IMG/VR virus record: IMGVR_UViG_3300047095_000811
Location: 32,001 to 96,000 of that record
Origin: a virus
Direction: 5' to 3' (one strand)
DNA length: 64,000 nucleotides
This document shows positions 5,932 to 38,242 of the stretch, piece by piece (within the stretch, counting starts at the first letter, position 1; every line of letters starts with the position of its first letter). The translations under genes were made by a program, and so were the position numbers. The notes beneath the pieces were generated by a model that worked only from the letters and a program-made list of their open reading frames with translations, had not been told where the DNA came from and searched no databases.

Positions 5932-8640
5932 CTAGTAGCCGCCTCTCAACTTGCTGGCCTTGGCGAATGCCAGCTGGCTTGGAGAGGTCAGAGAAGCTCG
6001 GTCGATCTTTGGATAGCTGGATGACATGCTGTTCATCGCCAGCCTGATCTCGCCTCGCTGCTGACCGTTGTAGTGCATGCCGATGTGAATCCAACGCCAC
6101 TCGGATCCGTTGCCCTCCAGAATTATCTGGTCGAAAGGGATGCCACTCTGGGTCGCCAGCCAGAAGAATGGTTCGCACAGCAGGTCGCCGGTGCCCGGAG
6201 ATGGAACGATGTCCGCAGCCATAGCCCAGATGTGCATCGAAGACTTGCTGCCCCCGGAAGGGATGTGGTAACGATAGAACGAGTTCATCCTCCCGCCTCC
6301 GCCGACGAACTTCCCGTACTTGGCGATGATCGGGTCAAGAGCAACCTTAGCGAACTTCTGAGCGAAACAGAACAGGTTGAAATCCTGACACAGCGCAGAT
6401 CCACGGTCCGGGTATGCCCCGTCCTTCGTGGTGTAGCAGTCCTCCAGTTTCAGGTTGGCCGACATCGGGTATGACGCCGGGATCTGCTGAGGTATGGAGC
6501 GACCGTTATAGTCGTTTTTCCCTGAGAACGAGCACGAGAACGGGCCAGTGTCGCCGGTCCTCCTGATGATTGGAGGGGTGCGGACGCTGCCGGTGCGGGC
6601 TGACCCGACGCCGAGAGACTGCTGGCGGAAGTAGGCGTACTCCTGCTTCATGCGCTTCACCTTGTCCACGTAGGACTCCCTCTGGATCACTGCGCCGTTG
6701 ACGGTGATCTTCGGGATGTTCGTAAAGTACATGTTGGCGTTCATCGGGACGCCGGTCTTGCCCTCCGACTGCGGGGAAGTGAAGTAGAACTTCACCGCCT
6801 TGAGACGGTACTCGCCGGAGTGGAGCTCGTCGTCCTTGTTGTAGAACTTCAGCACGTACTGCATGTTCTCCGTGAAGGCAAAGATGTCCACGTTGCACAG
6901 CTGGATGACCACGTTCAGCTGCTTCTCCCTGATGCTGTCCTGCAGCTGCGTCAGGTTGTACGGATTGTCGTTGCTCCCCCAGTAAGTCCTCTGGGTGGCC
7001 TCGTCGTCCATATTGATGTCGCACTCGGAGAAGACCGTGTCGTCCTGACTGGTCTGGATGATCCGCACGTTGTCTCCGTCGAGGATCTTCCCGGCGTTCT
7101 TCTTGTCGATCTGGTAGGGCTGCATGGTCCGGGCGATCAAGATATTCGACTTCTGGTCGATGTTCGAACCTTCCTCGAATTCCGGAATAGTCGTCTTCGA
7201 CACCTTGTCTAGGATCTCGATGAGCACCTGCTCCACCGTGTTCTTGCCGGGGGCGGTGCCGCCCTTGTCGGTGACCGTGACGAGAGTCTTGTTGCTGAAT
7301 CTGCCCGTTTCCTCGTCCTTCTCGGATACCACCGTGTCGAACATCACCCGGATGCCGGTGCGGTAGACGCCGTACTTCTCCTGAAGTTGCTTGATGTTCT
7401 GGGCGATCGTTCCGGGGTCAAGGATCACCTGCTCGTAGGTAGTGACGTTATCCGGAGGAGTGATCGCAAACTTCACGATGTCCTTCTCTGCGGAGTTGAT
7501 CTTCTTCTGGTCGTTGTACGCCTCGTTGAGGAGCGCGGTGATCACGTCCAACATGGTGACATTGTTGTAGACCTTGCTCTTCACCTTGCCGTTGATTTCT
7601 ACGTTCCGCTTGCTCACCAGATCCAGCTTGACCTTGTGGCGTGGGATGCCGGACGTTGGGTTCTCCTCCACCACCGAATCGGTCGGCAGCGACGGATTGA
7701 TCGGTATGAGGGGATGGTTGTCGAGGACTACGGTCTTCATGATGTAGTCCTCTTTGCCCTTGAGCTTGTTCCGCTCCCACTTCTTAACGTTGATGAAGAA
7801 GCGAAGCTGCTCGAAGTCGCTCTTGAAGTCCTTGAAGTTCAAGTCAGTCAGGGTCAGCAGTACAGAGAAGACCGGCATGACGAGCAGGTCGTACTCCATC
7901 GTGTAGATGAACTCGTTGATGAACGGGTCCAGCTTCACGACCTCGTTGTCCGGGCGGATGTAGTAGAGCTCGATGTCGTACACCCACTGGTCTAGGACTC
8001 TCTCCGGGATCTTTGGGTTCTTGTCCGGGTTCTCGGAGGAGTTCAGCCTTGTCGGCTTGTCCGACAGCTGCTCGGTCCTCGATTCCTCCAGGATTTTCTT
8101 CTTGATCTTCTCGACCTCGGCGACCAGAGGAGCGACGTCGTTGATGAACGAGACTAGCACCTGCTTCTGCTCGGAGACTAGATCGTCGGACTTGACTTTC
8201 TCCTCCAAATCCTTGATGCTGTACTCGGTTAGCTGCGCCGGGTCAAAAACTTTGTCCTTCAGCTTGTCTTGGAGCAGGTTGAAGTCGCTGAACGCCAAGC
8301 GCATCTTCGGAAACTTCTCGTGCGCCATGACTTCGTCGTCGGTCGGAGTCCCGGTAGCCGACGTGGCTTTCACCTCGTCGTATATGGTCTGCCCGATGTA
8401 GACTGCAGCGTTGTTGTAGTCCAGTTCGTACTTCTTGAGGATGTCTGAATACTTTAGCTTGATAGCATTCAGATCCATGAATTCTTTTTGGTACTTGCGG
8501 ACCTCGTCCTGTTTCTTGCCGCTGGTCGGCTTCAGGCGAGATTTTCTCGGGTCAAGGCGAACCGTGATGTCGTTCACGGCGCTCGATACCTTGTTTACCT
8601 CAGAGAAAGTCTTTGCGAGGTCGAAGAGGGTTCCGGCCAT
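5932..8640 (-). CDS. Tail/baseplate hub protein with C-terminal M15-family Zn peptidase
   Basis: The C-terminal SFYR...SSMHIWAMAAD...WIHIG fits the peptidase M15 H-x6-D...H pattern. The large N-terminal and middle part is hub-like (inference). Confidence 0.65.
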   Translation of the reverse strand: MAGTLFDLAKTFSEVNKVSSAVNDITVRLDPRKSRLKPTSGKKQDEVRKYQKEFMDLNAIKLKYSDILKKYELDYNNAAVYIGQTIYDEVKATSATGTPTDDEVMAHEKFPKMRLAFSDFNLLQDKLKDKVFDPAQLTEYSIKDLEEKVKSDDLVSEQKQVLVSFINDVAPLVAEVEKIKKKILEESRTEQLSDKPTRLNSSENPDKNPKIPERVLDQWVYDIELYYIRPDNEVVKLDPFINEFIYTMEYDLLVMPVFSVLLTLTDLNFKDFKSDFEQLRFFINVKKWERNKLKGKEDYIMKTVVLDNHPLIPINPSLPTDSVVEENPTSGIPRHKVKLDLVSKRNVEINGKVKSKVYNNVTMLDVITALLNEAYNDQKKINSAEKDIVKFAITPPDNVTTYEQVILDPGTIAQNIKQLQEKYGVYRTGIRVMFDTVVSEKDEETGRFSNKTLVTVTDKGGTAPGKNTVEQVLIEILDKVSKTTIPEFEEGSNIDQKSNILIARTMQPYQIDKKNAGKILDGDNVRIIQTSQDDTVFSECDINMDDEATQRTYWGSNDNPYNLTQLQDSIREKQLNVVIQLCNVDIFAFTENMQYVLKFYNKDDELHSGEYRLKAVKFYFTSPQSEGKTGVPMNANMYFTNIPKITVNGAVIQRESYVDKVKRMKQEYAYFRQQSLGVGSARTGSVRTPPIIRRTGDTGPFSCSFSGKNDYNGRSIPQQIPASYPMSANLKLEDCYTTKDGAYPDRGSALCQDFNLFCFAQKFAKVALDPIIAKYGKFVGGGGRMNSFYRYHIPSGGSKSSMHIWAMAADIVPSPGTGDLLCEPFFWLATQSGIPFDQIILEGNGSEWRWIHIGMHYNGQQRGEIRLAMNSMSSSYPKIDRASLTSPSQLAFAKASKLRGGY

Positions 8641-22267: not shown

Positions 22268-22777
22268 ATGGCAAACGAAGAAATGAGAACTGGCGTTGGC
22301 GGCAAGTCCGTCATCACGCACTACGAACAAGGGCCGGAAGGCGGCTTTGCCAAGAAGCGGTACTACTGCTCCTCCGGCAAGCCGACCATCGGCTGGGGTC
22401 ACGTCATCCTCCCGGAAGAGAAAGCAGAGCTCTGGGACGCCACGATCGACGCAGCCAAGGCAGACTCGATCCTCGCCAAGGACCTCGTCAAATACGAGTC
22501 CTCGGTCAAGAAGCTGGTGAAGGTCAAGCTGACTCAGAACCAGTTCGACGCGCTGGTGAGCTTCTGCCTGAACGCAGGCGAAGGTTCTCTCGCTGCATCG
22601 ACCCTACTGAAGAAGGTTAACGCCGGTCTGCATGCGGAAGTCCCTGCTGAATTCCTCAAGTGGAAGTACGGCACCGACCCGAAGACCAAGCAGAAGATTG
22701 AGCTCAAGGGTCTCCTGTACCGCCGCCAGACCGAAGCCCTTCTGTACGACAAGGGTGAAGTGAAATTCTTCAACTAA
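22268..22777 (+). CDS. GH24 phage lysozyme (endolysin)
   Basis: Catalytic-region E...Y.C..G.PTIGWGH, plus LTQNQFDALVSF and GL..RR..E motifs. Confidence 0.93.
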   Translation: MANEEMRTGVGGKSVITHYEQGPEGGFAKKRYYCSSGKPTIGWGHVILPEEKAELWDATIDAAKADSILAKDLVKYESSVKKLVKVKLTQNQFDALVSFCLNAGEGSLAASTLLKKVNAGLHAEVPAEFLKWKYGTDPKTKQKIELKGLLYRRQTEALLYDKGEVKFFN

Positions 22778-22786
22778 GGACACGGC

Positions 22787-23434
22787 ATGGCAAACCCTCT
22801 CTTTCTAGACGAGTCTGCCCTGTACCAGTTCTTCCTCAGTGAAGACGCGGTATTGATGGAAGCAGACGACGAAGACACCGAGGATCCGCAGGGATCCGAC
22901 AAAGAAAAAGACGCTCCGGACGCCGGAGCAGACGGTAAAGACACCGAGGCAGACGCGAGCGATGCTTCTGAGACCGACGATGCTCCCGCTGAGAGCGACG
23001 ACGAGTCCGAAGAATCTAGCGACGACTCCTCTGACGACGAGAGCGAACCCCCGGCTCCTAAGAAGAAGCCCTCTCGGTTTGCAATCAAGGTAGACGATAC
23101 GCCGCAGAATAGAGCGTTCATGTTCGAGAAGTTTGAAGCTCTCAACACGATGCACCAGAATCTGCGCCAGTTCATCGAGAACATCAGAGATCGGGCGAAC
23201 CTCTCTCCGGCGCAAGAAAAGATCTTCAGCCAGCTGGAGGTCAAGATCGGCTCGAACATCGACCTCCTGAAGGAAATGGTCGATGGTGAGATGCTTCTTG
23301 AGATGGAAATGTCCGACATCTTCGGCCTGTATAAAATTTACTTCAACGACGCTAGCAGCGTCAACAAAGTGATCAGGTCAATCATGAACACTGGACAAAA
23401 GGACGGTAAGAAGCGCCAGCCCAAACGTGGCTGA
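22787..23434 (+). CDS. Putative prohead/scaffold protein
   Basis: Directly upstream of the capsid gene; N-terminal FLDE/FLSE/LME motifs followed by a long acidic linker. Confidence 0.55.
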   Translation: MANPLFLDESALYQFFLSEDAVLMEADDEDTEDPQGSDKEKDAPDAGADGKDTEADASDASETDDAPAESDDESEESSDDSSDDESEPPAPKKKPSRFAIKVDDTPQNRAFMFEKFEALNTMHQNLRQFIENIRDRANLSPAQEKIFSQLEVKIGSNIDLLKEMVDGEMLLEMEMSDIFGLYKIYFNDASSVNKVIRSIMNTGQKDGKKRQPKRG

Positions 23435-23452: not shown

Positions 23453-23464
23453 AACATCCGATTA
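23453..23464 (+). promoter_or_regulatory. Late promoter AACA-N6-TA of the major capsid gene
   Basis: AACA-tccgat-TA followed directly by a leader hairpin (23468-23488). Confidence 0.75.
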
Positions 23465-23527: not shown

Positions 23528-25111
23528 ATGGCTATCTCCTACGATACCATTCATCAGAGCTCGGTCGGCGTTCGCATTTCCGGCGCTCTGGAAGGTCTGC
23601 AGTCCATCAACGAGGCTTTCCAACAAGAAGGCATCAATGTTCTGAACGAAGGCTTCAGCGAAGTCGCCACCAACTCTCACTTCTTCTCCGACTACGTCGC
23701 GAAGCTGTCCGAGGGCATGGATCCCGAAATCGCTGGTCAGTTCCAGGCCATCGCCAACAACACCCGCACCCAGATCCTGCAAGAAAGCTCGATCTCCGGC
23801 ATCAACCCGATCACCGCTCTGTCCCTGCCGATGCTGCGCGTGGCGTTCCCGAAGACCGCCATCCGTGAAGGCTTCCCGACCGAGCCGGTTCTGCAGCCGA
23901 AGTTCAAGGTGACTTGGCTGAAGCCGTACGTGATCGACTCCGCCAACAACCAGAAGGTCTACATGCCCCTCGGCATCAAGACCAAGAAGTCCCTGTTCAA
24001 GCTGAAGTCCCTGTCCGAGTCCGCAATCGCCGTTGGCGCTTCCGGCGCTGCTGGCGTTGACCTGCTGACCCCGGCTGGCGGCAACTCCGCTCTGGGCGAC
24101 GAGATCGACCCGAACTTCCGCATCGTGGCTGTGACCTTCAAGGCTCTGGACGCTGCTGGTGCCAACGCCGAGAACGTGACTGTCGAGTGCGACCTGCCGC
24201 TGGACACCAACATCGACGTCGTCGAAGGCTCCGTCAAAGGCGCTCACAGCGACAATACCGTCAACACCGTCCGCGTGTTCGCCAAGCTGAACCGCCGCGA
24301 AGGCGAGATGGACGTCGTTGGCCTGGGCCGCGAAGTGGTTTCCATCAAGATCCAGGGCTACATCAGCTCTGAATCCAACAACCGCTCCACCCAAGTCGGC
24401 TTCGACATCACCAGCGACGAGACCGTCATCGGTACCGGCGCTCCGATCGAGTCCCCGATCAACATCCAGCAGATGACCGACACGATGGCGATGTACAACA
24501 TCGACTCCACCGTTCGCACTCTGGAGATCATGTCCACCGCTCTGGCTCAATCCACTGACCTCGAAGGCATCGACTTCTTGGCCAAGAAGTGGTCCCTCGG
24601 CCTGAAGCTGGAGACCTCGTTCGACGTCAACCCGCCGTCCAACTTCACCCTCGGCAACACCGCATGGCGTGAAGAGATGAAGATCAAGATCGACAATCTG
24701 GTGACCCGTCTGATGCAGTCGACGAACATCACCGCTGGTCAGGCCGTGATCTTCGGCAACCCGCTCGACACCCAAGTGCTGCACAACGTTCGTTGGATGT
24801 ACTCCGGCGAAGAGCAGGTGAACGGCGTGAACGTGGAATACCGCGTCGGCTCCTACACCTCCGGTGTGACCACCTACAAGGTGCTGTCCAGCTTCAACTT
24901 CGACCAAGGCGACATGTACGTGTGCTTCCTGCCGTCCGCTCCGGATCAGGCAACCCTGAAGTACTACCCGTACAGCTTCAACGTCGTTCGTGGTACCGCT
25001 TCCCCGAACCATCCCTACACTCCGGCTGTCATGATGCTCAAGCGTCATGTCTTCAAGGAGTACAGCCCGATGATCGGCAAGCTGAAGATCCTGAACAACA
25101 ACGGCCAGTAA
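23528..25111 (+). CDS. Major capsid protein
   Basis: 527 aa with extreme codon bias, a propeptide with L-x-E sites, a gp23-like C-terminus (YYPY...P...MMLKRH), its own promoter and a terminator. Confidence 0.85.
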   Translation: MAISYDTIHQSSVGVRISGALEGLQSINEAFQQEGINVLNEGFSEVATNSHFFSDYVAKLSEGMDPEIAGQFQAIANNTRTQILQESSISGINPITALSLPMLRVAFPKTAIREGFPTEPVLQPKFKVTWLKPYVIDSANNQKVYMPLGIKTKKSLFKLKSLSESAIAVGASGAAGVDLLTPAGGNSALGDEIDPNFRIVAVTFKALDAAGANAENVTVECDLPLDTNIDVVEGSVKGAHSDNTVNTVRVFAKLNRREGEMDVVGLGREVVSIKIQGYISSESNNRSTQVGFDITSDETVIGTGAPIESPINIQQMTDTMAMYNIDSTVRTLEIMSTALAQSTDLEGIDFLAKKWSLGLKLETSFDVNPPSNFTLGNTAWREEMKIKIDNLVTRLMQSTNITAGQAVIFGNPLDTQVLHNVRWMYSGEEQVNGVNVEYRVGSYTSGVTTYKVLSSFNFDQGDMYVCFLPSAPDQATLKYYPYSFNVVRGTASPNHPYTPAVMMLKRHVFKEYSPMIGKLKILNNNGQ

Positions 25112-25122
25112 GACGTTGTGAG

Positions 25123-25160
25123 AACTCCCCATACCTGCAAGGGTATGGGGGTTTTCTTTG
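25123..25160 (+). terminator. Intrinsic terminator (CCCCATACC family)
   Basis: CCCCATACCT-GCAA-GGGTATGGGG followed by a T tract. Confidence 0.85.
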
Positions 25161-25164
25161 TTCC

Positions 25165-25210
25165 GAGAAGAAAAATAGAGCGCCACTAGGGAATTCCCTA
25201 GTGGCGTCTT
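25165..25210 (-). terminator. Minus-strand intrinsic terminator
   Basis: Perfect inverted repeat CGCCACTAGGG-AATT-CCCTAGTGGCG; T tract on the minus strand. Confidence 0.75.
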
Positions 25211-25413
25211 TGGCGATTCAGTTTGCATATTGGTGCGATCTACTGGAGGAGACCGTTTCCTTGCCCCGGAGGTACGAGAGCAAGGCGAAAGGAGACACGA
25301 TTAAACTTCCCGACCCTGATATGCAAGCATAAGGTCTCGGTCTTGCTCGCGGAAACTATCAAACGCGAGCAACACATCGGCATATGAACCCACACAAGCT
25401 TCCCAGCCGTGCT
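25165..25413 (-). ncRNA. Candidate structured late non-coding RNA (about 250 nt)
   Basis: Own AACA-N6-TA promoter (25413-25424), own terminator, several long helices and a possible pseudoknot; no convincing ORF. Confidence 0.55.
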
Positions 25414-25840
25414 ACTCAGTTGTTCGCAGCAGCTCTGCTCTTGCCTTCATCCGCTTCATGAACTCTCTAGCAAACTTGTCCGATTTTGCCGGAGCCGAAC
25501 AACCGACCGCCTCGGAGAAGAGTGGTAGAGATCGGTTGATTTTTTGGGTTTTAGCCTCGGCCACGTCTCTCCCGTAGACTTTGGCCTTACCAGCGAAATG
25601 GTACCCATATGCCAGCCGATTTCTGCCGAGCTTGACCGAGCTGAACTCCCCGTCGGTGAGAAACCGGCTCATGTACTCGTTGAAGGTCATCGGATTGTAA
25701 TTCGGCTCGATGTCGTCTCGGACAGCGTAGAAGATTTCTCTCAGGTCGTCCACGGTGAAAAACACCCCCATGTTGTGACCTAGGAATTTCTTGATCTCTC
25801 TGGTCAAGACAAAGAACCCAGACAATCGATCATTGCTCAT
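25412..25840 (-). CDS. Hypothetical protein
   Basis: 142 aa ORF with SD GGAG. Confidence 0.65.
   Translation of the reverse strand: MSNDRLSGFFVLTREIKKFLGHNMGVFFTVDDLREIFYAVRDDIEPNYNPMTFNEYMSRFLTDGEFSSVKLGRNRLAYGYHFAGKAKVYGRDVAEAKTQKINRSLPLFSEAVGCSAPAKSDKFAREFMKRMKARAELLRTTE
25413..25424 (-). promoter_or_regulatory. Late promoter AACA-N6-TA with no clear downstream CDS
   Basis: AACA-actgag-TA overlapping the stop codon of the 25412 gene. Confidence 0.6.
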
Positions 25841-25902
25841 GTGCTTCTCCCATAAAAAAAGATCGGAGGGCTAACGCTCTCCGATCTTGTCATGCAGCTT
25901 CT

Positions 25903-28236
25903 TTACACCTTGACGATTTCCTCGCCGAGGTTGAAGGTGGCGAGAACATCCTCGCCGTCAGCTTGGATGGTCACGGTGTTCTCATCCAGAGAAGAGAACT
26001 CCTTGAACCATGTCTGACCGACGACGATGGTGTACGACACGCGGGCCATCAGACCCTGCAGTGCGCGGACGCCGTTGATGAACTCCTTGCGCTTCGCATC
26101 CAGCCACTCGCGCAGCTTCGCCTCGTCCTTGGCTTCTTCCGTCGCCATGAACTCGGTGTACTCCTTGTAAGGAGCTACGAAGCCCTTCTCGCGACCAGTC
26201 AGAGCCTTACCGGCGTCGATCTTGGCGATCACGTCGGCGGTCTTCGGCAGGGACTTCAGACCCTTCAGCTCGACCGACAGCTCCTTGGTGGTGTACTGGT
26301 CGGTGGACGGAGACACGGCACGCTTCGGATTGAACCCGGCGTCGGTCACGCCCATCTCGATCAGGTAAGCCACCTGCTCGGCGCTGTACTTCTCGACCAG
26401 ACCGGCAGACTTCGCACGGGCGAACTTCTGATCGTAGAAGTAGTTGAACACGGCCTGACCGCACTTCTTCAGGTACAGGTCGTACTGCGAGCGAGCGGTG
26501 TCCACGGCGGAGACTTCGCCGACCATCTTGCGGTTGATCAGCGGGATATCCATCAGGTTCAGCTCGAAGACCTTACCGGCTTCCCAGTCGATGGACTCGT
26601 CCAGAATCTTCTCGGCTACCAGCTTGTCGAAGGTTGCCTTGGAGAAGGACACCGGCAGAGTCTTGGTGTTGATGATCCCGTCCCGGATAATGTTGTAGTT
26701 GCGATAGACTTTGGACTCGACTTCGGTCAGGCCCAGGTCGTTCTTCGGCAGCTTCACGGTACCCTTGCGCTCGACCCGGATCGACACGTTGGGACGGGTC
26801 GAGTTCAGCACGATCGCGTGGAACGGAACGTCACCGGCATCGCCTTCGACGAACTTGGCAGCTTGCTTGGTCTCCAGCAGTCCATCGATGTAGTCGTTCA
26901 CTGCCTTGATGTCTTTCGCATTGCGAGCCTTGGCGCTGCGGGCAGCGACTTCGGCCTTCTCTTCTTCGCTCAGAAGCTCCATCGCGTCTTCCGTTGCGCG
27001 GGAGATGCGGCTGTAGTTCTCGAAGAACTTCTCGCTGAGGATCAGCTTGGCATCTTCGTCCTTGATCAGGTCGTCGAGCAGCTGCACCACAGTGTAGGCA
27101 TCTTCCGCCGGGACCATCGTCGGATCATAGCCTTCCTTCATGCGCTCGGAGTTGTTGAAGACGCACTTCAGCACTTCGGCTTGGAAGGAGGTGTAGTGCT
27201 GCTTGCCGAAGCAGTTCGCGAACATCTTGATCAGACGGACGTCGCCAATGGCGCGGAGGAAGCCGTAGCCCTCGTTGCTCATCATGCGCTGCGCCAGCAC
27301 GAACATGCCAGCGTACAGACCGGGGATCACTGCGCTGGTAGTGCGCTTGCCTTCTTCGAACTTCTTGGCGAAGATGTCTGCTGCAGACTCCTTCTTGCGA
27401 CCGCTTTGGACGGTGGAGAGGAACCAGACGGTCTTCGTGGTGGAGGGAACCGCCACCTTGCCGTCAACCACAGCGTACGCCACGACTGCGTCGTCGGTGA
27501 TGGTATAAGCCACCTTACCGATGCTCTCGGTCGGGATTTCCACCTCGATGCGCTTTGCCATAGCGGCGCTTGGCTGGTTGGTGAACTCGGCCTCGATGAT
27601 CGGGACGTAGTCCTGGAACTTCTCGGCGAAGATCAAGTTACCGCCAGCGGCTTCGGCCATCTTGGTGAGGAGCGGACGGTTGCAGTACCAGCCGTACTCG
27701 ACGATGGTGAAGGTTGCCATCTTCATTGCGGCTTCTTCAGTTGCTTTCAGGATCTGGTCGACGGCCCATTCGTTGTCGCCACCGTCAGTCATGAAGCTCA
27801 GAGAGAAGACGTTGTCGGAGCCGAGCGTGGAGATGATGCGGTCCACGAGACGGCTGGCTTCTTCCATCGGCTCCTTGAAGCCGGTCAGACCGACGGTCGT
27901 CAGGTAGCGATCGATGGCAGCGTTGACCTGCTGGAGGCTGGTCGCGCTCTTCATCGAGTACGCTTCGACGACGGTGCCGAACTGGCCGCGACCGCTGAAC
28001 CAGATGATCGACAGAGTGTCGTTCTCGGCGATGGAGGTAGCGATCTTGTTCTTCAGCTCTTGACGCAGGCGGTCCAGACTGCCGTACATGGAGCCGGAGC
28101 AGTCGATGGCGAAGATGTGGTTGACCTTGGGAGGAGCGACCACTACCGGCTCCTTACCTTCCTTCTCCTTGGGGATGGTGACGGAGATCAGGTTCAGTTC
28201 TTCGGAGACGGGGTAGGAAACAACAGTGTTTGCCAT
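25903..28236 (-). CDS. von Willebrand factor A (vWA) domain protein
   Basis: MIDAS motif DCSGSM...T...MTDG; 777 aa; strong codon bias. Confidence 0.85.
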   Translation of the reverse strand: MANTVVSYPVSEELNLISVTIPKEKEGKEPVVVAPPKVNHIFAIDCSGSMYGSLDRLRQELKNKIATSIAENDTLSIIWFSGRGQFGTVVEAYSMKSATSLQQVNAAIDRYLTTVGLTGFKEPMEEASRLVDRIISTLGSDNVFSLSFMTDGGDNEWAVDQILKATEEAAMKMATFTIVEYGWYCNRPLLTKMAEAAGGNLIFAEKFQDYVPIIEAEFTNQPSAAMAKRIEVEIPTESIGKVAYTITDDAVVAYAVVDGKVAVPSTTKTVWFLSTVQSGRKKESAADIFAKKFEEGKRTTSAVIPGLYAGMFVLAQRMMSNEGYGFLRAIGDVRLIKMFANCFGKQHYTSFQAEVLKCVFNNSERMKEGYDPTMVPAEDAYTVVQLLDDLIKDEDAKLILSEKFFENYSRISRATEDAMELLSEEEKAEVAARSAKARNAKDIKAVNDYIDGLLETKQAAKFVEGDAGDVPFHAIVLNSTRPNVSIRVERKGTVKLPKNDLGLTEVESKVYRNYNIIRDGIINTKTLPVSFSKATFDKLVAEKILDESIDWEAGKVFELNLMDIPLINRKMVGEVSAVDTARSQYDLYLKKCGQAVFNYFYDQKFARAKSAGLVEKYSAEQVAYLIEMGVTDAGFNPKRAVSPSTDQYTTKELSVELKGLKSLPKTADVIAKIDAGKALTGREKGFVAPYKEYTEFMATEEAKDEAKLREWLDAKRKEFINGVRALQGLMARVSYTIVVGQTWFKEFSSLDENTVTIQADGEDVLATFNLGEEIVKV

Positions 28237-28395: not shown

Positions 28396-28788
28396 TTACT
28401 TCTTCGGCGCGGCACCGATGCCAGCCATGAGCTGACGAGCGCGAGCGATGGCCTTGGAGCCATACTTGCGGTAGATCACCTCGCGGATTTGCAGGCGGAT
28501 GCCGTTGAACTTCGCGTACTTGGTGTACAGCGGGTCCAGCTTGGCCTTTGCCAGCAGCAGGGCTTGGCGGTGAGCCAGATTGTTGGTCTTGGCCTGACGG
28601 TTCAGACGAACGATGTTCTGCTGCTCTTGCAGGACTTCTTCGGAAGCTTCCGGATCCAGAGCGTTCATGGCAGCAGCCATGCGACGCATCGCCAGCTCTT
28701 CGTCGAGCTGGAGAGCCTCGCTCTCGGAACCGACTTCGGCTTCATGGGATTCCTGCTCTTCGCCCAACAGTTGATTGATGAGAGACAT
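28396..28788 (-). CDS. Small virion head protein
   Basis: Acidic N-terminal part with LLGE/LDE/VLQE motifs, basic C-terminal part, late promoter. Confidence 0.6.
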   Translation of the reverse strand: MSLINQLLGEEQESHEAEVGSESEALQLDEELAMRRMAAAMNALDPEASEEVLQEQQNIVRLNRQAKTNNLAHRQALLLAKAKLDPLYTKYAKFNGIRLQIREVIYRKYGSKAIARARQLMAGIGAAPKK

Positions 28789-38097: not shown

Positions 38098-38231
38098 GTG
38101 AAGCCCCCTTACGGATTGACCGTAAGGGGGATTTTCACAGAGATTCTTGGCAGGATTGGCAGATCGGAAGTGACGGAAAGGTAGTCGTCTATGAATTTGG
38201 CCGACAACGCCAATTTCTGCTTCGTATCTCT
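38098..38231 (-). ncRNA. Candidate small late non-coding RNA (about 130 nt)
   Basis: Late promoter at 38231-38242. The predicted +1 AGAGAU pairs with AUCUCU just before the terminator, and internal hairpins are present. Confidence 0.5.
38102..38136. terminator. Bidirectional terminator
   Basis: CCCCCTTACGG-ATTGA-CCGTAAGGGGG. Confidence 0.8.
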
Positions 38232-38242
38232 ATCAGGATGTT
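38231..38242 (-). promoter_or_regulatory. Late promoter AACA-N6-TA with no clear downstream CDS
   Basis: AACA-tcctga-TA downstream of the tail-tube terminator. Confidence 0.6.

Follow-up and report, generated by a model that had tools for sequence, protein, structure and literature searches.

A short interval just downstream of the major head protein gene of an uncultured giant phage, flanked by a promoter-like sequence and a terminator and nearly free of open reading frames (ORFs), raises the question of whether it encodes an RNA in its own right. The window, i.e. the whole 64,000-nucleotide (nt) stretch of DNA analysed here, corresponds to bases 32001-96000 of the 136,853-base IMG/VR virus record IMGVR_UViG_3300047095_000811 (contig G000, estimated 52% complete), and has a G+C content of about 55%. 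The source is a freshwater giant phage, a distant relative of Yersinia phage phiR1-37. The element under study lies on the minus strand at 25165-25424 and converges on the head protein (capsid) gene, and an earlier note, made from the letters alone, had described it as a late, structured, functional RNA with its own promoter and terminator. The unit was found to be conserved and stand-alone, its ORFs lack conservation, and RNA libraries contain the interval; it is probably an independent gene for a late non-coding RNA. What survives of the earlier description is a separate, late-type, protein-less minus-strand unit, since the promoter motif was validated genome-wide, a second copy stands alone, the ORFs are not conserved and contigs from RNA libraries cover the interval; the attribute "structured" was not sustained.

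The unit begins with an exact AACA-N6-TAG sequence, AACAACTGAGTAG (AACAACTGAGTA followed by G), at 25424-25412 on the minus strand, for which the A at 25413 is the predicted start. The AACA-N6-TA site that the earlier note placed at 25413-25424 is therefore present as an exact match, though it had escaped mention that the TAG of this sequence doubles as the stop codon of an ORF of 142 amino acids (aa) at 25412..25840 (minus strand). The late promoter consensus described for the Bacillus giant phage AR9 is AACA-(6N)-TA/G, the last A or G being the start site, and it is read by the non-virion RNA polymerase (PMC5312081, PMC5449584). In the window, AACA-N6-TA occurred 21 times against 9.5 expected and AACA-N6-TAG 16 times against 2.8 expected, and neither count was reached by any of 100 shuffles. 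Over the 136.8-kb contig, 23 of the 29 AACA-N6-TAG copies precede a gene, taken as an ATG with a Shine-Dalgarno word that opens an ORF of at least 60 aa 5-200 nt after the site, as against 387 of 2000 random positions. The capsid gene is among these 23 (site at 23453, predicted start 23464), and AACA-N6-TAG is a real promoter motif in the source genome. The site studied here is one of the six copies with no gene behind them. Another copy, AACAGGAGAGTAG, is followed by a tRNA-Arg(TCT) gene that starts 10 nt past the predicted start (G000:C1:29146-29232, minus strand, about 2.8 kb before the window), so this class of promoter also drives RNA genes in the phage. Other AACA-N6-TAG sites lacking such a gene are at 38231-38242 of the window (minus strand) and at 22962 and 24001 of the contig (minus strand), and four other orphan units of the source genome had no notable words in common with the one studied.

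At its other end the unit is closed by an intrinsic terminator at 25165..25210 (minus strand), composed of a stem-loop at 25206-25181 and then CUCUAUUUUUCUUCUC; the terminator scan gave 11 pairs, 8 of them G-C, a loop of 4 and the tail CTCTATTTTT. As had been claimed, this T-tailed terminator is the unit's own and distinct from that of the capsid gene, which the same scan placed at 25126-25151 on the plus strand, converging on the RNA unit and outside it. Terminator-like sites in 24000-27000 amount to 2 against a shuffle mean of 2.4, i.e. there is no excess of them. Between promoter and terminator lies a 200-nt ORF-poor interval, and the positions of the two signals predict an RNA of about 240 nt (25170..25413, minus strand). 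The phage's own AR9-type RNA polymerase would start at the A of AACA-N6-TA at 25413 and would stop at the hairpin and U-tract near 25170, yielding an RNA of this length with no conserved protein.

Four related loci were retrieved from IMG/VR by a capsid search, and in one of them, L004, a second copy of the unit was found at the same position after the capsid gene. The two capsid proteins are 88% identical, with 83.3% identity of the DNA and 68.7% at third codon positions. The minus-strand order in L004 is the terminator of the upstream gene (6976-6945), the promoter AACAATTTCATAG (AACAATTTCATA followed by G; 6917-6905), about 220 nt, and a 13-base-pair (bp) hairpin followed by UUUU. The upstream gene is the homologue of the gene for a 130-aa virion protein at 28396..28788 of the window, the 142-aa gene and the 777-aa gene that precede the unit in the window are missing at the locus, and the unit is placed alone between two terminator hairpins. 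Promoter, blocks and 3' hairpin are kept though the neighbours differ, and the L004 unit cannot be the 3' tail of any gene.

The blocks common to both copies are collinear, in the order GTTCATA, CGATGTG, GACCG, GCTTGCATATC, GTTTA(A/G)TCGT, CGGTCTC and CACCAATATGCA. In the RNA sense (minus strand) they include GUUCAUA (25383..25389; identical at L004 6870-6876), CGAUGUG (25373..25379; identical at 6856-6862), the 11-nt exact match GCUUGCAUAUC (25318..25328; 6805-6815), CGGUCUC (25249..25255; 6766-6772) and the 12-nt exact match CACCAAUAUGCA (25224..25235; 6694-6705). Exact words of at least 11 nt shared by the window element and the L004 contig (90,750 nt, both strands) number four, of which two, those of 11 and 12 nt, are collinear inside the syntenic unit. 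The collinear-match score was 45 against a shuffle mean of 20.5; of 2000 shuffles, 2 attained this value, and among 822 unrelated tiles the highest score was 41. Homology of the two copies, judged by position (synteny) and short blocks, is taken as established. By local BLAST the element is single-copy, and a fuzzy search for the blocks in the four related records gave matches in G000 and G004 alone.

Among the runs listed, 24 contain the stretch and 10 of these are recorded as RNA; the samples are lake, river and wastewater. Four river metatranscriptome runs (X3, X4, X5 and X7) were examined as Logan contigs. A 180-nt contig of X3 lies on 25216-25395 and a 174-nt contig of X7 on 25216-25389; these end 18 and 24 nt, respectively, from the predicted start at 25413, while the X3 capsid contig starts 20 nt past the predicted start of the capsid gene (23464). 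Capsid and unit contigs alike end short of their terminator hairpins, and none of the contigs in the four runs joins the unit to the 142-aa gene or to the capsid gene, the contigs of which end at 25103-25121. Both unit contigs break off at 25216 with no loose end, which is rated a weak hint. The positions 25396-25897, which include the 142-aa gene, and 25122-25215 are uncovered in the four runs and give evidence neither way. The extents of the contigs fit a transcript from 25413 to about 25170, whose exact ends, strand and late timing are inferred.

As the earlier note had warned, ORFs of 30 and 47 codons are present inside the interval. One ORF opens in both copies at the AUG of the conserved CGAUGUG and runs for 45-47 aa in the window and 69 aa in L004, and the 47- and 69-aa products gave no BLASTP alignment at E≤100. 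The best tblastx match between the copies was 12 aa long (E 0.09), and the two ORFs are in different frames where they cross the conserved 11-nt block; BLASTP, tblastx and reading frames agree that the small ORFs are not conserved. The window ORF has no Shine-Dalgarno sequence and that of L004 has AAGG just 2 nt before the AUG, whereas the real genes of the source genome have AAGGA 5-9 nt upstream of the start. No Pfam family was found for the ORFs of the unit, no tRNA or transfer-messenger RNA by ARAGORN, and no trace of the neighbouring genes in the interval by tblastn. Decay of either the 142-aa gene or the 296-aa gene located behind the capsid gene in the relative G001 was rejected as the origin of the interval on the lack of a tblastn trace.

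With regard to folding, all the helices and the crossing pair proposed in the earlier note were located in the sequence. A 9-bp hairpin, UUGCUCGCG...CGCGAGCAA, is predicted at 25343..25372 (minus strand; 25372-25364 with 25351-25343), and a weaker hairpin of different sequence occupies the same place in L004. The helix GCUUGCAUAU/AUAUGCAAAC has a single C.A mismatch, and the GGUUCA/UGAAUC helix is present in the window element. The hairpin CCUUGCUCU...GGGGCAAGG (25259..25285, minus strand) holds ACCUCC (25268-25273) in its loop, with a mean probability of being unpaired of 0.73, and the L004 hairpin CGGCAG...CUGUCG holds CACCUC in its loop with a value of 0.75. The remark that one helix pairs better on the plus strand was correct, the C.A mismatch of the long helix being G.U there; CCUUGCUCU/GGGGCAAGG contains two G.U pairs which the plus strand would break. 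The crossing pair GAGACC (25338-25333)/GGUCUC is present in the window. A pseudoknot is possible in both copies, in a register slightly shifted from this one, between the conserved GACCG and CGGUCUC, which can pair across the long-range helix; its 5' side is GACCGAGACC (25333..25342, minus strand), and L004 keeps GACCG at 6822-6826 and can pair as GACCGC/GCGGUC.

The two longest conserved blocks, GCUUGCAUAUC as 5' arm and CACCAAUAUGCA as 3' arm, are complementary and give a long-range 7-bp helix, UGCAUAU/AUAUGCA, in both copies. This complementarity is the best argument for what may be a functional fold, and it would fit a DNA inverted repeat equally. Features predicted in both copies are a small 5' hairpin, a hairpin after CGAUGUG, the long-range helix and the hairpin whose loop carries ACCUC(C); their interior helices could not be aligned. 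Within the aligned inner domain, the consensus fold is limited to the invariant 7-bp helix and two 3-bp stems, and both partners differ in 2 of 13 predicted pairs, in a comparison of two sequences. Folding of the full-length units gave z-scores of -2.97 (window) and -2.29 (L004), values to which the terminator contributes most. A separate observation is that the heptamer ATATGCA/TGCATAT has just two occurrences in the 136.8-kb contig, both in the element (window 25224-25328), where they are the arms of the long-range helix.

A number of results weigh against a conserved RNA gene. Only two copies are known, and their anchored alignment is identical in 155 of 292 columns; this is below the 68.7% at capsid third codon positions, so that most of the unit is unconstrained in sequence. 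Neither BLAST, which gave no match in the four related records and no link in a local run at word size 7, nor a covariance model links the two copies. The model was built from a single sequence, the window core with three of the helices of the earlier note, and scored the L004 copy at 9.6 bits (E 0.28), rank 2 of 16 behind an unrelated match, the inner helices being skipped as local ends. MAFFT applied to the two elements misplaced promoters and conserved blocks, its alignment being sensible just for the stretch between the two long blocks. The fold of the window core (25220-25389) had a z-score of -1.30, its stability being equalled or exceeded by 32 of 300 shuffles, and that of the L004 core -0.17, with 125 of 300; the seven shared long-range pairs are invariant, hence there is no covariation in these two sequences. 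With the core fold no better than shuffles, the shared helix invariant and the model at E 0.28, the claim of a structured RNA in the strict sense is not supported. The 3' hairpin of L004 was not called a terminator by the scan. As for expression, the unit is covered in two of the four runs, from two studies, X4 and X5 having no contig there, and in Logan contigs neither strand nor ends are readable, while RNA libraries can hold DNA. Finally, no copy was found in the complete 263-kb genome of G001, whose capsid is 76% identical.

Further searches did not add to the two copies. A GCTTGCATAT word in G001 was rejected as a copy of the unit because it lies inside a 144-aa gene, and an orphan-looking promoter in the same genome because it lies inside coding sequence upstream of the capsid gene. 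In G001 the site after the capsid gene is occupied by the co-directional 296-aa ORF (L005 6686-7576, plus strand), which has no Pfam family. Among viral contigs the block pattern matched 30 loci, 29 of them chance matches in AT-rich coding genes and the other the L004 contig; the promoter with two blocks matched 2 loci, the L004 contig and an AT-rich chance match; and a capsid profile gave the same two relatives and no others. The profile gave 10 loci in metagenome contigs, none with a usable stretch beyond the capsid gene, and genome contigs searched by capsid and by DNA pattern yielded nothing.

Several of these points would be expected if the RNA had no function, the unit being an emptied promoter-to-terminator cassette left behind, or an element acting at the DNA level, and the RNA a by-product; for example, the inverted repeat TTGCATAT...ATATGCAA could be a protein-binding site, or the interval could buffer convergent transcription units from each other. 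Over most of the interval, conservation falls below that of synonymous sites in the capsid gene, the fold is unremarkable, the unit is absent from G001 and phiR1-37, and a DNA inverted repeat would account equally well for the two conserved complementary blocks. Nonetheless, promoter, blocks and 3' hairpin are kept in two phages with differing flanking genes, the element is single-copy with no trace of a decayed gene, and the interval appears in RNA-library contigs of two of the four runs, and we consider this explanation rather unlikely. It is somewhat less probable again that the interval is simply a long 3' tail of the mRNA of the 142-aa gene and the promoter match a product of chance. The motif overlaps the last four codons and the stop of that ORF, chance alone would give about 2.8 AACA-N6-TAG matches per window, and the ORF is probably a real gene: it has a GGAG ribosome-binding site, located directly after the terminator of the 777-aa gene, and one homologue, 92% identical (P0068), among 5.8 billion proteins. 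In L004, however, the unit and a matching promoter follow a terminator with no such gene upstream, the 142-aa protein has no match in the four related phage records, and no RNA-library contig spans gene and unit. No Pfam or PHROG family was found for this protein.

Translation from the AUG of CGAUGUG, giving a small protein of 45-47 aa in the window and 69 aa in L004, might be suspected from the conservation of that AUG and its surroundings and from the ORF that follows in both copies. The products are nevertheless dissimilar, the 11-nt block is read in different frames, the start lacks a Shine-Dalgarno sequence in the window and has AAGG too near at 2 nt in L004, and no family is matched, which makes a small protein gene very unlikely. 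About as little weight, if anything slightly less, is given to the stronger form of the earlier proposal, a highly structured RNA acting as a catalyst, as a decoy of RNA polymerase or in capsid assembly or packaging. The unit does adjoin the capsid gene behind a late-type promoter, and the conserved long-range helix and the possible conserved pseudoknot (GACCG/CGGUC) occur in both copies. Against it, the core fold is no better than that of shuffles, the interior helices are not alignable, and the absence of the unit from the complete G001 genome argues against an essential part in assembly. The earlier statement that no known RNA family is recognisable was confirmed by the Rfam scan, in which no family, ribozymes included, reached its gathering threshold in either copy; the best scores were 23.8 bits against a threshold of 93 for the window (24500-26500) and 35.2 against 80 for L004 (6400-7200), the latter located on the capsid terminator. 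No result favoured a packaging, polymerase-decoy or ribozyme role.

If the unit is an independent gene for a late non-coding RNA, its mode of action can be proposed tentatively, at low confidence, as that of a trans-acting regulatory RNA; within the reading as an RNA gene, the rest of the weight falls on an RNA that binds protein or serves as a scaffold. The regulatory RNA would be held together by the conserved long-range helix GCUUGCAUAU/AUAUGCA, with a possible contribution of the GACCG/CGGUC pseudoknot, and its fold would display pyrimidine-rich CUCC and ACCUC(C) words that could mask ribosome-binding sites on mRNAs of the host or the phage. We take the loop words ACCUCC and CACCUC to match the 3' end of 16S ribosomal RNA (anti-Shine-Dalgarno). 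Each copy contains CUCC/CCUC 6 times, compared with 1.7-1.9 times in shuffles, and 28 of 2000 shuffles reached the observed count in each case, in a test picked after inspection of the sequences. No target was found in the phage genomes: duplex energies calculated for 313 and 77 candidate start regions pointed to nothing but implausible whole-length duplexes on spurious ORFs, and no conserved site for the complement of GUUCAUA...CGAUGUG was found. A more specific version, which must be regarded as quite speculative, is a late RNA made together with the capsid mRNA and serving as a decoy that carries several anti-Shine-Dalgarno copies (ACCUCC, CACCUC and UCUCCUCC) on a scaffold closed by the conserved helix and the pseudoknot. 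It would cover the ribosome-binding sites of host or early-phage mRNAs, and translation would shift to the late genes, which in the source phage mostly use AAGGA-type sites.

The kind of element is already known, as orphan RNA units of giant phages, with small RNAs (sRNAs) published for phages 201phi2-1 and phiR1-37. The late units of AR9 have, in the published descriptions of its promoters, the same promoter word and spacing as here (PMC5312081, PMC5449584), and the AR9 late class as described includes one tRNA gene (PMC5312081), a likeness to the motif-led tRNA-Arg of the source phage. In the source phage the motif precedes most virion genes, the capsid gene included. It differs from AR9 in its 55% G+C, in the G that nearly always follows the TA, and in being a distant relative whose capsid matches that of phiR1-37 weakly. 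An AR9-type late unit would further entail a phage-encoded multisubunit non-virion RNA polymerase, here putative with sub-threshold Pfam matches, and uracil in the DNA. For the Pseudomonas giant phage 201phi2-1, 11 sRNAs are described, among them 3 intergenic ones, the definition being a start site with a terminator close behind it (PMC11512511). They resemble the present unit in being short promoter-to-terminator units with no coding sequence, of unknown function and partly conserved among relatives, and differ in that their ends were mapped whereas those here are predicted, and in their promoters; for phiKZ a TATG-type promoter is cited (PMC5312081).

In Yersinia phage phiR1-37, the nearest cultured relative of the source phage by capsid, the sole intergenic small RNA described is misc_4, of about 300 nt, which is encoded in an ORF-less gap and is thought to pair with host mRNAs; it lies, according to the same source, between g099 and g100, far from the capsid gene g135, whereas the unit studied here adjoins the capsid gene (PMC4848604). 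Behind the phiR1-37 capsid gene comes a gene in the same direction, and no unit converges on it; no DNA similarity to this phage beyond the capsid was found in the phage collection. The packaging RNA (pRNA) of phage phi29, a non-coding RNA of similar size, is an early transcript of a small podovirus and was the model behind the packaging idea of the earlier note. It is presumably among the Rfam families, and the unit matches none of these; nor was any link of the unit to portal or terminase seen. What is new here is a syntenic homologue, which shows that the unit outlasts the rearrangement of its neighbours, the non-conservation of the ORFs inside it, and contigs from environmental RNA libraries in agreement with the predicted unit. 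Orphan promoter-to-terminator units of no known function are emerging in large numbers from giant phages that encode RNA polymerases of their own, and should it be true that such RNAs regulate late translation or assembly, they would form an unexplored layer of giant-phage biology.

The assignment of the source to a freshwater giant phage distantly related to phiR1-37 follows from the capsid family, the weak phiR1-37 match, the sub-threshold hits for RNA polymerase subunits and the sampled runs. The ORF at 23528..25111 (plus strand) encodes the major head protein (phrog_20655, E 3e-163), and its relatives in the protein collection are 99% (P0001), 90% (P0002) and 85% (P0003) identical. A 140-base piece of the phiR1-37 head gene, and nothing else, was the cultured-phage DNA similar to the window in the phage collection. 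In the contig, which is about 52% complete, the Pfam matches for the RNA polymerase beta and beta' subunits scored 19.9 bits (cut-off 23.4) and 14.1 bits (cut-off 25.3), respectively.

Among the neighbouring genes, an endolysin-like gene at 22268-22777 (plus strand; phrog_7, E 1e-39) is located two genes upstream of the capsid gene. The 777-aa protein encoded at 25903-28236 (minus strand), whose gene is missing from the corresponding position in L004, belongs to phrog_2426, of unknown function, and its N-terminus shows a weak von Willebrand A domain that scores below threshold. Short metagenome contigs with capsid relatives of 71-77% identity (L060-L063 and L067) end about 20-130 nt past the capsid gene and look like assembled capsid transcripts.

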